DNA from: Candidatus Nomurabacteria bacterium RIFCSPLOWO2_12_FULL_40_42
GTDB taxonomy: Bacteria > Patescibacteriota > Minisyncoccia > Phycocordibacterales > UBA9973
Assembly: GCA_001786195.1 (NCBI GenBank)
Contig: MFVS01000008.1
Coordinates: forward strand, 21,057 to 85,056
Reading direction: 5' to 3'
DNA: 64,000 bases
The notes under the pieces were generated by a model that was not told where the DNA came from, ran no database searches, and worked only from the letters and a program-made list of their open reading frames with translations. Positions 40,105 to 44,092 of the stretch are shown here, one piece after another. The first letter of the stretch is position 1. The number at the start of each line of letters is the position of its first letter. The translations under genes and the position numbers were made by a program.

Positions 40105-41147
40105 AAAATATTGAAGGTAAAACCGTGCTTCTGCGTGTAGATTTTAACGTGCCGATTAAAAATGGAAAAGTCGAAGATGATTTTCGGATAATTAAATCCC
40201 TACCCACGATAAGTTTTGTATTAGAAAAAGGTGCGAAAATTGTTTTAATTACTCATTTGGGTAAAGATGGGAGTGATAGTTTGGAGCCGGTTATTAAGCG
40301 TTTTTGGGAAGTAGCTAAGTTTCCAAAAGACAAAATAGAATTTTATGAAAATGTGCGAAAATTTCCTGGAGAAGAAAAAAATGACCCTAGTTTTGCTAAA
40401 AAACTAGCCGCCTTGGGCGATATTTATGTTAATGATGCTTTTCCCGTTTCTCACCGCCCCCACGCATCTATCGTTGGCATTCCGAAATATTTACCCTCTT
40501 ACGCCGGGCTTCAACTCGAGGAAGAAGTAAAAAATTTATCTCGCGCTTTTCAAAAACCAGAGCATCCATTTTTATTTATCCTGGGCGGAGCCAAATTTTC
40601 CACCAAAATTCCCTTAATAGAAAAATATTTAGAACTAGCCGACCAGGTTTTTATCGGCGGTGCTTTAGCGAATGATTTTTTAAAGGCCACCGGCTACGAA
40701 GTGGGGAAGTCTCTAGTGGACGACACGAATTATGGCATTGAAAAAGTATTAAAGAATAAAAAGTTAATTTTACCGGTTGATGTTGTAGTGAAATCCGGTG
40801 AAATTTTAATAAACAAAAAGTCGGATGAGGTCGGTAAAGAGGAAAATATTTTAGATATTGGCTCGGAAACAGTAAAAAATCTGGCATCACTTATCCAAGA
40901 TTCAAAGTTTATTCTTTGGAACGGGCCTCTCGGCAAATATGAAGAAGGCGGGGGAAATTCTACTAAAGAAATATTAAAATTAGTCGCAGATTCCAAAGCT
41001 CTTAGTATTATCGGGGGAGGAGATACAGTAGCTTTGATATCAGAAATGAATATGGAAGATAAATTTTCATCTGTCTCTACTGGCGGTGGCGCTACTCTTG
41101 AATTTCTCGCCAATGGCACTCTGCCAGGCATCAAAGCGCTTGAGTGA
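40083..41147 (+). CDS. pgk: phosphoglycerate kinase (short form)
   Basis: VLLRVDFNVPIKNGKVEDDFRI N-terminal signature. GGGDT...GGGATLEFL C-terminal motifs. 354 aa. Confidence 0.88.
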   Translation: MRSIKQIENIEGKTVLLRVDFNVPIKNGKVEDDFRIIKSLPTISFVLEKGAKIVLITHLGKDGSDSLEPVIKRFWEVAKFPKDKIEFYENVRKFPGEEKNDPSFAKKLAALGDIYVNDAFPVSHRPHASIVGIPKYLPSYAGLQLEEEVKNLSRAFQKPEHPFLFILGGAKFSTKIPLIEKYLELADQVFIGGALANDFLKATGYEVGKSLVDDTNYGIEKVLKNKKLILPVDVVVKSGEILINKKSDEVGKEENILDIGSETVKNLASLIQDSKFILWNGPLGKYEEGGGNSTKEILKLVADSKALSIIGGGDTVALISEMNMEDKFSSVSTGGGATLEFLANGTLPGIKALE

Positions 41148-41180
41148 TTTAAGCTTTTATTTATAAGGGTTTTTCTGGTA

Positions 41181-41209
41181 TTGACATAGAGGGTTTTTGG
41201 GTGTATAAT
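41181..41209 (+). promoter_or_regulatory. perfect-consensus sigma70 promoter driving the DGR target gene
   Basis: TTGACA, 17-nt spacer, TATAAT, about 95 nt upstream of the target ORF start. Confidence 0.6.
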
Positions 41210-41304
41210 TTAAAGGTATACAAACGGCAGAAATCTCTGCAACCTGTCCGAGGCATTCGGAATATACCTGTGAGCAACGGGTGAATGTTCAATGAAAAGA
41301 AAGG

Positions 41305-41700
41305 TTGGGTAAAATCGTGAGTAGCGAAAAAATTGTCGACGGAGCCACTGGGGTGAAGGTCTATCTCAGGCGGTTGTTTGCGGACGAGACGATAACTTAT
41401 GGCGATGTGAAAGTTGTCATTTTCGAACTCGTTCAAAATGGCAATTTCCAGAAAATGTTTGGAGAGCTCGGCGAAAAGCGCCGATGTTGGAAAAACAAGG
41501 AGGAGGCGCTGGCTTTCGCCGAGCAAAATACGGAAAAGCTCGGTCCCAACAGCAACTTCTTCGAGCTTGAAGGCGGCTTCGTTGCCAACGTGAACCTCGA
41601 CGGGGACGGTCAGCCCTATGTGAACTTCGTGAGCCCGCTTTCGAACGACTCCGCTTGGTACGCCGGGTTTCAGCCTCGAGTGTTCTACCCGCAACAGTAA
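41305..41700 (+). CDS. DGR target (variable) protein, small, VR at C-terminus
   Basis: 131 aa ORF; start is either TTG 41305 or GTG 41317. Markedly GC-rich relative to its surroundings. Its last 40 codons are the variable repeat. Followed by a hairpin plus T-tract at 41727-41790. Confidence 0.6.
   Translation: MGKIVSSEKIVDGATGVKVYLRRLFADETITYGDVKVVIFELVQNGNFQKMFGELGEKRRCWKNKEEALAFAEQNTEKLGPNSNFFELEGGFVANVNLDGDGQPYVNFVSPLSNDSAWYAGFQPRVFYPQQ
41577..41697 (+). repeat. DGR variable repeat (VR)
   Basis: 119-bp repeat pairing with 42068-42186. 10 substitutions, 9 of them where the template repeat has A (template AAC codons become TTC/AGC/TCC/TAC here). Confidence 0.8.
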
Positions 41701-42067
41701 CTTGGTTACTCGTTGCAAAAAATCACAACCGTTCTCAACCGGAAAAATCGCGTGGAGGACGGTTTTTCTTTTGCCACTTTGAAACTTTTTCTCTTTGACC
41801 CTTTGTTTTTATATTTTTGATATACTGGTTATGTAATCGGGAAATGCTTACGGCTAAGGCTCTAAGCCATGATTATTTAAAAACGAGTTTGAGAATTTTG
41901 CCGGAAATTTTTCTTGCGAAAGAGTGAATTCTTTTTTAAAAACAAAAAAACATAAAAGTTGGTGCGATGAACTCGTAGGCTTCTACGCCTCAAATAATAT
42001 ACAGCACGATCTTTGGTATTAAATTATGCTCAGATCGGCAGTGCCATAGATGGTTCATCGCACAATT

Positions 42068-42188
42068 CTTCGTTGCCAACGTGAACCTCGACGGGGACGG
42101 TCAGCCCTATGTGAACAACGTGAACCCGCTTTCGAACGACAACACTTGGAACGCCGAGTTTCAGCGTCGAGTGTTCTACCCGAAACTA
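42068..42188 (+). repeat. DGR template repeat (TR)
   Basis: Non-coding copy of the VR with adenines at the variable positions (5 AAC codons in the VR reading frame). Preceded by a TTGACC...TATACT promoter-like sequence at about 41795-41830. Confidence 0.8.
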
Positions 42189-42201
42189 TTAAGTTTCTCC
42201 T

Positions 42202-42595
42202 TCATTTATGTGGAGGAGTTTTCTTTTCGAGACCTTTCTTCCAACCACCCAGCATTCTGCCTATTTCCTGCAAGTGTTCGGATAGAGCAGAATACTTTTC
42301 ATTCGGGATGCATTTATTTCCCCAAGCTATCTGCAGAAAGAATTTTATGCCGTCGAGTTTGGAAATCGCGATGATGAGACGAGGTATTTTAGTTTCCGGC
42401 GGGAGATATATTGAAACAAAAATATTTTCCAAAAGGCCGAGGAAATAATCTTCTATCTTTCCACCTAGGGTGTAGCGGTGCGCCTTTGGAAAATCATTGT
42501 ATATTTTAAACCAAAGAGAATAGGCTGTTTTTGTCTTTAAAAGCGCTGAAGGCGCTGCGGGGGGGGGTCCCGGAAATATGAAACAATTTATTCAT
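42202..42595 (-). pseudogene. avd: Avd (accessory variability determinant; four-helix-bundle family), antisense to the TR/RT, apparently frameshifted
   Basis: Minus-strand frame encodes ...YSLWFKIYNDFPKAHRYTLGGKIEDYFLGLLENIFVSIYLPPETKIPRLIIAISKLDGIKFFLQIAWGNKCIPNEKYSALSEHLQEIGRMLGGWKKGLEKK, matching the TIGR02436/Avd consensus. There is no in-frame ATG/GTG/TTG upstream. ATG 42593-42595 is in the -1 frame and terminates at 42506, implying a frameshift near the A5/G9 homopolymers. Confidence 0.5.
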
Positions 42596-43588
42596 ACTTA
42601 CGATAGTACCATAACAATAGAAAAACTGCTCAAGGCATGGCAGGAATTCGTGCGCGACAAGAAAAACAAAAAAGATGTGATTTTATTCCAGGCCAAGCTG
42701 ATGGATAACATATTCGATCTTTTTAATGATCTTAAAAACAAAACTTACAAGCACGGCGGTTATATCGCTTTTAATATATCAGATCCTAAACCTAGGCAAA
42801 TACACAAGGCAACAGTTCGAGATAGGTTGCTGCATCATTTGATATATCGAGAACTTTACGAACATTTTAATTCAAAATTTATCCACGACTCATATTCCTG
42901 CCGATTAAACAAAGGAACCCACAAAGCGATCAACAGATTCCGCGATTTTTTCCGAAAAGTTTCCAAAAATCACGCAAAGACGTGCTTTGTTCTCAAGTGC
43001 GATATCAAGAAATTCTTTGCCAACATTGATCATCAAATTTTAAAGCAAATTTTAGAAAAACACATCGAAGACAAAAATATTATCTGGCTTCTTTCACAAG
43101 TTATAAATAGTTTTTATACTCAACTAAATACTAAAAACTCTGCGATAGCAGAAAGTTTAGTAAAAGGTTTGCCATTAGGGAATCTAACTTCCCAACTTCT
43201 GGTAAATGTTTACATGAATGAATTTGACCAGTTTATGAAAAGAGAATTGAAAGTAAGGTATTATATACGATACGCAGACGATTTTGTAATATTGAGTGAT
43301 AATAAAAATTATCTTGAAGACTTACTTCTAAAGGTCTCTAGCTTCTTAGAAAAAGAATTAAAATTACAATTACACCCAGACAAAGTTTTTATGAAAACTT
43401 TCGCTTCCGGTGTTGATTTTCTAGGCTGGGTACATTTTTCAAAGTATAGAGTTTTGAGGACGAGTACAAAAAGAAAGATGTTGAGGAATCTTGAAAAAAA
43501 TTTTAAAGAAGAGTCACGACAGTCATATTTAGGAATGTTGAAACACGGGAATGCTTATAAGCTCAAAAGTGAGATTGAAAACTTATAA
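42578..43588 (+). CDS. DGR reverse transcriptase
   Basis: 336 aa. Motif 2 VLKCDIKKFFANIDHQIL. Motif 4 GLPLGNLTSQLLVNVYM, the DGR-diagnostic [ILV]GxxxSQ in place of QGxxSP. Motif 5 RYADDFVIL. Confidence 0.9.
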   Translation: MKQFIHTYDSTITIEKLLKAWQEFVRDKKNKKDVILFQAKLMDNIFDLFNDLKNKTYKHGGYIAFNISDPKPRQIHKATVRDRLLHHLIYRELYEHFNSKFIHDSYSCRLNKGTHKAINRFRDFFRKVSKNHAKTCFVLKCDIKKFFANIDHQILKQILEKHIEDKNIIWLLSQVINSFYTQLNTKNSAIAESLVKGLPLGNLTSQLLVNVYMNEFDQFMKRELKVRYYIRYADDFVILSDNKNYLEDLLLKVSSFLEKELKLQLHPDKVFMKTFASGVDFLGWVHFSKYRVLRTSTKRKMLRNLEKNFKEESRQSYLGMLKHGNAYKLKSEIENL

Positions 43589-43615
43589 AAATTTTAATCA
43601 AAGCGCTTGAGTGAT

Positions 43616-44092
43616 TTACTTGGTAATTTTTTTAGCTGTTTCCTTTAGTTTCTCGTCAGACTCTTTTTTATAGTCATGCGAAGAAATATAACCTTCGTAT
43701 TTTTTAAAATATTTATCTATTTTTGATTCAAGTGGCTTCCAATTTTCCATATCTGCAGTTCCATGCATGGGATATAATTTAGAATGAACATGATTGATTC
43801 CAAATCCTTCAAAGACCATCGCTGTTCTACCTACATCTTTAAGTTTTGAATCCAAAAGTTTTGCAACTTTTTTTGTGGCTGTTATTAATCCACGAAGTAT
43901 TTCATCGGGCAAATCAAAAGCATAACTTGAGTAATGAGTTTTTGGTATTACAACAGTTACTCCTTCGGTATTTGGGAAAGGTGTCAGAAAAGCCATATGT
44001 AAAGAGTCTTCCCAGATTTTATAAGCAGGTGCCTCTCCTTTTATTATTTTGCAAAAAATGCAGTTTTCCATAATTTCGTTATTATATCTCAT
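43616..44092 (-). CDS. HIT-family protein
   Basis: CIFCKII...EGVTVVIPKTHY...GFGINHVHSKLYP is a HIT-like fold with a degenerate HxHxH triad. Confidence 0.6.
   Translation of the reverse strand: MRYNNEIMENCIFCKIIKGEAPAYKIWEDSLHMAFLTPFPNTEGVTVVIPKTHYSSYAFDLPDEILRGLITATKKVAKLLDSKLKDVGRTAMVFEGFGINHVHSKLYPMHGTADMENWKPLESKIDKYFKKYEGYISSHDYKKESDEKLKETAKKITK

Follow-up and report, generated by a model that had tools for sequence, protein, structure and literature searches.

The window analysed here, a stretch of 64,000 nucleotides (nt) of contig MFVS01000008.1 from Candidatus Nomurabacteria bacterium RIFCSPLOWO2_12_FULL_40_42, carries a cassette between pgk and a HIT-family gene in which a small open reading frame (ORF) ending in a variable repeat (VR) is followed by a template repeat (TR), an avd frame on the opposite strand, and a reverse transcriptase (RT) gene. 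The original prediction, made from the letters alone, had read this region as a complete diversity-generating retroelement (DGR), and this interpretation is supported by the combination of an RT of the DGR clade, an Avd frame, and a small ORF with the VR of an adenine-specific TR/VR pair at its 3' end. Completeness requires a qualification: all parts are present, but avd lies antisense and its full-length frame contains no ATG, GTG, or TTG start. The core components are the following:

41317-41700, + strand: target gene, 127 amino acids (aa) from GTG 41317; an alternative TTG start at 41305 would give 131 aa
41577-41695, + strand: VR, which makes up the final 39 codons of the target gene
42068-42186, + strand: TR, the only sequence in the window that repeats VR
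42202-42591, - strand: avd open frame, covering the whole Avd profile; its first canonical in-frame start is TTG 42432 (76 aa)
42578-43588, + strand: DGR reverse transcriptase, 336 aa (Pfam RVT_1, 1.8e-26)

VR and TR form a direct repeat of 119 nt with 92% identity, confirming the repeat pair that had been noticed. When the ten mismatches are tabulated by TR base, nine fall at A and one at G (42166, G to C); given that TR contains 29 A in 119 nt, the hypergeometric probability of finding nine or more of ten at A is 8.7e-6, in agreement with the proposed adenine-directed differences. Each A-site change lies at codon position 1 or 2 of the target frame (the ORF ending at 41700). In VR, four AAC codons have become TTC, AGC, TCC, and TAC, one fewer than the five initially counted, and the further codon changes from TR to VR are ACT to GCT, GAG to GGG, AAA to CAA, and CGT to CCT. 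BLAST of TR against the whole window revealed no additional VR copies. The conspicuous GC-richness of this block also holds, with a G+C content of 59.7% in VR, 55.5% in TR, and 51.8% in the target, compared to 39.9% in the window.

The homology between the two repeats stops at CCG(C/A)AAC. The last difference, A to C at TR position 42183, sets CGAAAC in TR against CGCAAC in VR. Given that the same contrast recurs in many relatives (roughly half of 52 sequences, judged by eye), it looks like a fixed difference at the TR/VR boundary, similar to IMH/IMH* (IMH, initiation of mutagenic homing), rather than a product of mutagenesis. Directly at the end of VR lies the following element:

41691-41714, + strand: hairpin over the target stop codon, CAACAGTAAC-TTG-GTTACTCGTTG, 10 base pairs with one bulged base

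Folded as DNA, this hairpin reaches -7.8 kcal/mol (z = -3.27), and similar post-VR hairpins are present in loci L004, L009, and L029. It is the putative counterpart of the inverted repeat that follows IMH. The hairpin after TR is a different one and is considered below together with the template RNA.

The RT contains the motifs expected of a DGR enzyme, DIKKFFANIDH, LGNLTSQ (of the DGR type LGxxxSQ), and YADD. Its best relative among solved structures is 8ub7_A (E = 8e-33 over residues 8-319), followed by group II intron RTs (7e-16), as had been anticipated for a DGR-type RT. We infer that 8ub7_A is the prototype DGR RT, bRT of Bordetella phage, because its numbering (D138, I181, G182, Q187, D215, and D216) fits the residues named by Handa et al. 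(10.1101/2023.10.23.563531). An ordinary 119-nt duplication with a chance A-bias, located next to a group II intron or retron RT, would provide another explanation for the locus. Indeed, the best NCBIfam model for the protein is a group II intron RT/maturase (145.9 bits, far under the cutoff of 300), and NCBI records name it 'Retron-type reverse transcriptase'. However, the A-bias is too strong for chance and the same pattern is present in 51 relatives, the LGxxxSQ motif is in place, the best solved match is a DGR RT, and an Rfam scan of 40900-43800 at E <= 1 gave no match, including to any intron or retron RNA. Together, the A-bias, the RT match, and the relatives effectively refute this explanation, to which we assign a negligible probability.

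More than 550 relatives of the RT are found in GTDB species genomes, and we compared the loci of the best 80, which are 59-76% identical to the RT of the window and come nearly all from metagenome-assembled genomes (MAGs) of the candidate phyla radiation (CPR)/Patescibacteria. An Avd match is present in 77 of the 80 loci and is located on the minus strand directly upstream of the RT in each of these 77. An upstream TR/VR pair was recovered in 51 loci, with 11-27 mismatches each, almost all at A. As side observations, one relative (L066, 3213-3326) has, past the end of its RT gene, an additional VR that matches the same TR with 16 mismatches, all of them at A, and another MAG (RIFCSPLOWO2_01_FULL_39_17) harbors two separate DGR cassettes (L021 and L022). 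The arrangement in the window, TR on the plus strand, avd on the minus strand, and RT on the plus strand, is the published B3 architecture, TR-(avd)-RT, in which a reverse-strand avd is located between TR and RT; according to Wu et al. (2018, PMC5758913), 90% of CPR DGRs have this layout. The element therefore belongs to an already known class. We are confident that it is a chromosomal DGR of this CPR-specific architecture with a single target ahead of it, and as such it is an ordinary representative of the CPR B3 class, compact elements with which ultra-small groundwater bacteria vary the end of a single small binding protein. The Patescibacteria-restricted DGR clade 2 described by Roux et al. 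(2021, PMC8144416) is probably equivalent to this class.

Proteins identical to the pgk, RT, and target products of the window are recorded on many public contigs. The source names of the matching contigs are Candidatus Nomurabacteria (Parcubacteria, CPR), with genomes labelled RIFCSP and GW2011, which we take to be labels of the Rifle aquifer studies. CPR genomes are rich in this kind of cassette and DGR surveys have already been made on the same Rifle datasets; this exact locus may have been catalogued before. The presence of a DGR by itself adds little, and it is the regulation of the element that could matter. The noteworthy points come from the comparison with relatives, and these are a repeat conserved in position at the avd/RT junction and a covarying RNA domain 5' of TR.

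The original prediction had listed avd, without coordinates, as one of the genes of the cassette, which is correct insofar as the frame exists, but it occupies the minus strand and has no canonical start before TTG 42432. The open frame of 129 residues matches Pfam bAvd with 52.5 bits (cutoff 40) and NF033474 with 63.9 bits (below its cutoff of 80), and the extended translation spans profile positions 6-104 of 104, whereas the 76-aa ORF starting at TTG 42432 matches only the C-terminal half of the Avd profiles. No ATG, GTG, or TTG is found ahead of residue 54. In-frame ATA codons are located at 42579 and 42591, and the ATG at 42595 lies one base out of the avd frame across a run of nine C residues (G9 on the plus strand). 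Among database homologues of Avd, some begin at several different ATGs upstream of a Pro-Pro-Pro motif and many others are called as truncated proteins of 75-93 aa; for one relative (P0147, locus L029), the NCBI annotation starts the protein at an in-frame ATT. No full-length Avd closer than 92% identity to the frame of the window was present among the database hits, and the nearest full-length cluster-mate, P0159, differs at several residues. When compared to ten relatives, five of which are themselves start-less, the 39 avd codons upstream of TTG 42432 display a ratio of non-synonymous to synonymous differences per site (pN/pS) of 0.02-0.11 at a pS of 0.43-0.92. Judged by these codon comparisons, the start-less frame is under strong purifying selection.

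These features bear on the question whether the element is still active. The differences between VR and TR are a record of past activity. Over 6.4-13 kb, seven fetched contigs match the window exactly, one N aside; they derive from GCA_001786885.1 (MFUD01000011.1), the JGI samples 3300025174 and 3300002104, two ENA assemblies, and repeats, so that the base-by-base comparison covers five separate sample accessions plus two repeat fetches of the same ENA/NCBI records. VR is identical in 7/7 of these contigs, and we observed no diversification, with the limit that these are consensus assemblies in which low-level variation is possible. Five full-length members of the protein cluster, which together account for 93 contigs, also share this VR peptide. 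In addition, only 9 of the 29 TR adenines differ between TR and VR, compared to 11-27 A-site mismatches in relatives, and this low number counts against our main reading of the locus. The element is probably quiescent in this population.

A more radical explanation is that the cassette is a frozen relic, in which the avd start was lost, retrohoming has stopped, and VR now evolves like the end of any ordinary gene. The lack of an ATG, GTG, or TTG for full-length Avd, the uniform VR, and the small number of A-site differences would all be expected from such a relic. On the other hand, RT, TR, the RNA domain, and the entire Avd frame are intact, about two thirds of the relatives likewise have no in-frame canonical start upstream of the repeat, and the low pN/pS of the upstream avd codons extends to the comparisons with the five other start-less relatives. 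Since purifying selection is evident even between start-less loci, the missing avd start must be old and tolerated rather than a sign of recent decay, and we consider the relic explanation improbable.

An alternative to permanent loss is suggested by the sequence at the junction of the two divergent genes:

42542-42567, + strand: hairpin AGCGC-TGAAG-GCGCT followed by G9 (42559-42567), ending 10 nt before the RT ATG

On the minus strand, the G9 tract encodes a Pro-Pro-Pro stretch near the start of the Avd frame; nowhere else in the 64-kb window does a G/C run reach a length of eight. A repeat tract is located exactly at the shared 5' junction of avd and RT in 75 of 78 relatives (L011-L090). In 65 of the 78 it is a run of G6-G13 (mode 9), and of the 13 relatives without a G run, ten carry (GA)8-16, (TC)8-10, or (GT)8-10 at this position. 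Tract length varies from 7 to 11 in the closest relatives, with nearly identical flanks. A canonical in-frame avd start upstream of the G run exists in 21 of the 65 G-run loci (about one third), while 20 have a near-cognate codon only and 24 have no start. Given that the avd ORF is intact and constrained while its frame depends on the repeat, Avd may be gated on/off (or low/high) by the junction tract, in the manner of a phase-variable gene. For the clade as a whole, we tentatively propose that a simple-sequence repeat (SSR) at the junction toggles either the Avd frame or the spacing of the divergent promoters, which would render targeted hypermutation phase-variable, with G9 of the window as an OFF allele. 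We put forward this proposal jointly with a second one on the template RNA (see below), and rate the pair at a little under even chances.

Several findings weigh against a switch. All contigs compared carry G9, and thus there is no tract-length polymorphism in this strain, again at the level of consensus assemblies. The junction hairpin covaries and contains G-U pairs in 62 of 320 cases when read on the plus strand, compared to 24 of 264 on the minus strand; because of this excess, a role as a plus-strand RNA element is possible. Moreover, Avd could start at the in-frame ATA at 42579, which would make a switch unnecessary.

In a rival reading, which the excess of G-U pairs also favors, the junction repeat is a 5' untranslated or ribosome-binding element of the RT, or a spacer of non-B DNA between the divergent genes, and Avd starts at ATA/ATT or further downstream so that the DGR is constitutively competent. 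The distance of 10 nt from G9 to the RT start codon has close parallels in many of the nearest relatives, the in-frame ATA occupies a position where several relatives have ATG, and the annotated start of P0147 is an in-frame ATT. Yet, (GA)n, (TC)n, or (GT)n replaces the G run in ten relatives, of which (TC)n and (GT)n cannot serve as Shine-Dalgarno sites, and tract length varies between nearly identical flanks in the closest relatives. The genome also hardly uses Shine-Dalgarno sequences: such a motif is absent from 43 of the 47 long ORFs of the window. In many cases, a TATAAT box is located 7-10 nt ahead of the ATG, which points to leaderless mRNAs, and the genome appears largely leaderless. 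For these reasons, a function of the G run as the Shine-Dalgarno site of RT, which had been considered as a candidate, is unlikely. Overall, we regard a junction repeat without switch function as rather unlikely, though clearly more plausible than a frozen relic.

If the switch reading is correct, a stochastic and heritable on/off switch would be stacked on a diversity generator, and an OFF allele with G9 would explain the clonal VR of the window. In the literature searched, we found neither a link between SSRs and DGRs nor an explanation of how cells hold DGR mutagenesis in check. A repeat-slippage gate on Avd is a testable proposal in this regard, building on a tract conserved in position and not in sequence, a constrained avd frame without start, and an identical VR.

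The second outcome of the comparison concerns the RNA that contains TR. The region upstream and downstream of the repeat harbors the following elements:

41795-41826, + strand: putative promoter of the TR RNA, with an extended -10 box TGATATACT (41818-41826) and TTGACC 20 nt upstream
41887-42063, + strand: structured 5' domain of the TR RNA, ~180 nt, six helices with 33 base pairs
42197-42228, + strand: terminator-like hairpin CTCCTTCA-TTTATG-TGGAGGAG followed by TTTTCTTTTC, also found by a terminator scan

The -10 columns of the promoter are invariant in 18 relatives, and the ~220 nt from the extended -10 box to TR are strongly conserved despite being non-coding. RNAalifold on 51 sequences yielded 33 pairs in six helices, with double compensatory changes in 29 of the 33. 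In this alignment, 95.4% of the cells in the 5' domain are paired, compared to 66.6% in shuffled alignments (0/500 reach the observed value) and 40-53% when the partners are slid; the covariation score is 0.886, compared to 0.29 and 0.12-0.24, respectively. Folding of the single sequence gives the same helices (z = -3.65). Since G-U pairs are frequent, the structure is specific to the plus strand. A long-range helix of 12 bp (41962-41973 with 42052-42063) closes the domain 4 nt before TR. The Rfam scan mentioned above included this domain and returned no match.

Directly downstream of TR, a CTCC..GGAG hairpin is apparent in the 51-sequence alignment; its distal stem covaries, and a U-tract comes next. 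For other phyla, Handa et al. (10.1101/2023.10.23.563531) describe a stem-loop immediately past TR that is bound by Avd and commonly has 9 bp and a tetraloop, and by analogy the hairpin at 42197-42228 is probably its counterpart. The 3' arm and the U-tract are the reverse complement of the conserved KKTPP codons at the Avd C-terminus (avd 42202-42225, minus strand); hence, one stretch serves both strands. Pairing of the conserved AGTTGGTG motif with CGAAACT at the 3' end of TR was also considered as a primer duplex and dropped, as it comprises only 4 bp and displays no covariation by eye. The other half of our joint proposal, held with the same reservation as the switch, is that the template RNA of this clade has its large protein-binding structure 5' of TR and not 3'. 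One consideration counts against our main reading of the element: efficient termination at the U-tract, if it occurs, would leave no obvious 3' priming segment like the Sp of Bordetella. We found no experimental work on a CPR DGR in the literature searched, and the covarying domain now provides a defined construct for reconstituting such a system in vitro.

Combining these elements, we envision that the extended -10 promoter near 41820 drives a ~380-nt TR RNA in which TR is flanked by the structured domain and the stem-loop. This RNA would be bound by RT and Avd, which would copy TR into cDNA, misincorporating opposite adenines, and the cDNA would then replace VR and thereby rewrite the C-terminal ~40 residues of a small, putatively C-type-lectin-like and probably cytoplasmic protein. 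Given that avd has no canonical full-length start and that G9/C9 leaves the nearest ATG one base off the avd frame, the supply of Avd, and hence mutagenesis, would be low or off in most cells and depend on slippage at this run. A low supply of Avd would fit the identity of VR in all contigs compared.

Expression of the target itself would involve three further elements on the plus strand:

41181-41209, + strand: target promoter TTGACA-17 nt-TATAAT
41226-41286, + strand: three-hairpin 5' leader of the target mRNA, ending CGGGTGAAT, with compensatory changes in all three stems
41729-41772, + strand: putative terminator-like stem (41729-41736 with 41755-41762) and T-run after the target, read from the sequence

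The promoter is as perfect as originally described (a score of 12/12) and is kept in L004, L009, L019, and L023. The leader was found by motif search only in the window and in three of these loci (L004, 1360-1420; L019, 3375-3438; L023, 2300-2367), and it had no match in Rfam; a MAFFT alignment of the four sequences misplaced one stem. The leader may be a cis-regulatory RNA, and its alignment favors GTG 41317 as the start of the target. The loop of the stem at 41729-41772 exceeds the range of the terminator scan, and counterparts of this element are present in L004 and L009.

For the target protein, no signal peptide was recognised and neither Pfam nor NCBIfam produced a match; the protein is probably cytoplasmic. 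Homologues form only six other clusters among 5.8 billion proteins, with 42-64% identity. The AlphaFold model, built from seven sequences, has a pLDDT of 85.9 and a pTM of 0.81; the predicted minimal C-type-lectin-like fold is plausible, although a Foldseek search returned nothing significant. The VR-bearing ORFs of relatives are mostly 200-250 aa long, and many share the motif FF.L.G..FVA.V...VW.A...R.V.PQ.

Several target homologues occur in unusual contexts. Orphan target cassettes, consisting of a promoter, a homologous target with VR, a post-stop hairpin, and a terminator, are located at L004 1313-2060 (also in L005-L008) and at L009 2290-3100. Their targets, P0002 (L004-L008) and P0005 (L009), lie alone between housekeeping genes, sua5|murB and ruvA|rpsT, respectively, and no TR, avd, or RT is present on these contigs of 0.7-5.7 kb. 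In L004, an A9 run separates the conserved GTG start from the main ORF, and the two are in different frames. At L010 6001-6531 (P0012), the target runs directly into TR and its downstream sequence, with exactly 491 nt missing when compared to the window, and P0010 is similar. A genuine recombinant between VR and TR was considered for this locus and rejected as the less likely reading: an assembly collapse is probable, because the same scaffold has a second gap, which splits recJ. Finally, P0006, a target homologue of 192 aa on a 1.1-kb contig, ends in QSYLGLLKHGNTYKLSEKLKS, a tail similar to the C-terminus of the window RT, QSYLGMLKHGNAYKLKSEIENL, and this similarity suggests a deleted or chimeric cassette.

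The cassette as a whole is bracketed by a direct repeat:

41130-41151, + strand: left copy of the 22-nt repeat ATCAAAGCGCTTGAGTGATTTA, covering the last five codons and the stop of pgk plus 4 nt
43597-43618, + strand: right copy of the 22-nt repeat, just past the RT stop; the final 3 nt form the HIT stop codon
43616-44092, - strand: HIT gene, convergent with RT

The two copies are perfect, they are the only two in 64 kb (none is expected from shuffles), and they enclose the entire 2.4-kb cassette. A flanking repeat of comparable length was found in 0/46 relatives, the best being 14 nt in L073. Two relatives (L034 and L025), whose pgk is 55-63% identical to that of the window, have a DGR at this pgk-proximal position as well but lack the repeat, and in other relatives the DGR is located near recJ or rnhA. 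In the deduced empty site, the stop codons of pgk and HIT would be 1 nt apart, and a duplication would therefore preserve both genes. The simplest reading is a recent insertion or re-insertion with duplication. A search of metagenome contigs for the cassette-free pgk|HIT junction yielded 0 hits; this result is uninformative, because the pattern of the occupied G-run junction was also unmatched and the strain is thus not represented in that collection.

How does the element compare to known systems? With respect to other CPR B3 DGRs (Wu et al., 2018, PMC5758913), there is no structural difference; what sets the window apart is a target that is unusually short (127 aa versus ~200-250 aa in most relatives) and the 22-nt flanking repeat, which the relatives lack. 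A second point of comparison is the DGR of Bordetella phage BPP-1, with the gene order mtd-avd-TR-brt, and its bRT-Avd-RNA complex (Handa et al., 10.1101/2023.10.23.563531). The RTs are homologous and the catalytic and template-contacting residues are kept in the window, and the two systems further share a four-helix-bundle Avd protein, A-specific substitutions, a stem-loop right after TR, and a hairpin after VR. They differ in that avd of the window is antisense and inserted between TR and RT, a U-tract follows the post-TR hairpin, and the host is cellular and not a phage. Similarly, the BPP-1 target is the tip of the tail fibre, whereas the target of the window is small and has no recognisable export signal. 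The BPP-1 element requires 20 nt upstream and the 140-nt Sp segment 3' of TR, whereas the large conserved RNA structure of the window is located 5' of TR.

The junction tract, in turn, finds its closest parallel in SSR contingency loci such as the poly-G tracts of Campylobacter (PMC8437040), in which a repeat (here G8-G13 or dinucleotide) likewise lies between divergent genes, where an otherwise intact ORF begins. As in those loci, a fraction of the copies is in frame, here about one third, and tract length varies among close relatives. The (TA)n repeat between the divergent hifA and hifB promoters of Haemophilus influenzae is a further example of this kind. Unlike at these loci, no length variation was seen within the population, as far as assemblies report it, and the controlled function would not be a surface structure but a mutagenesis system.

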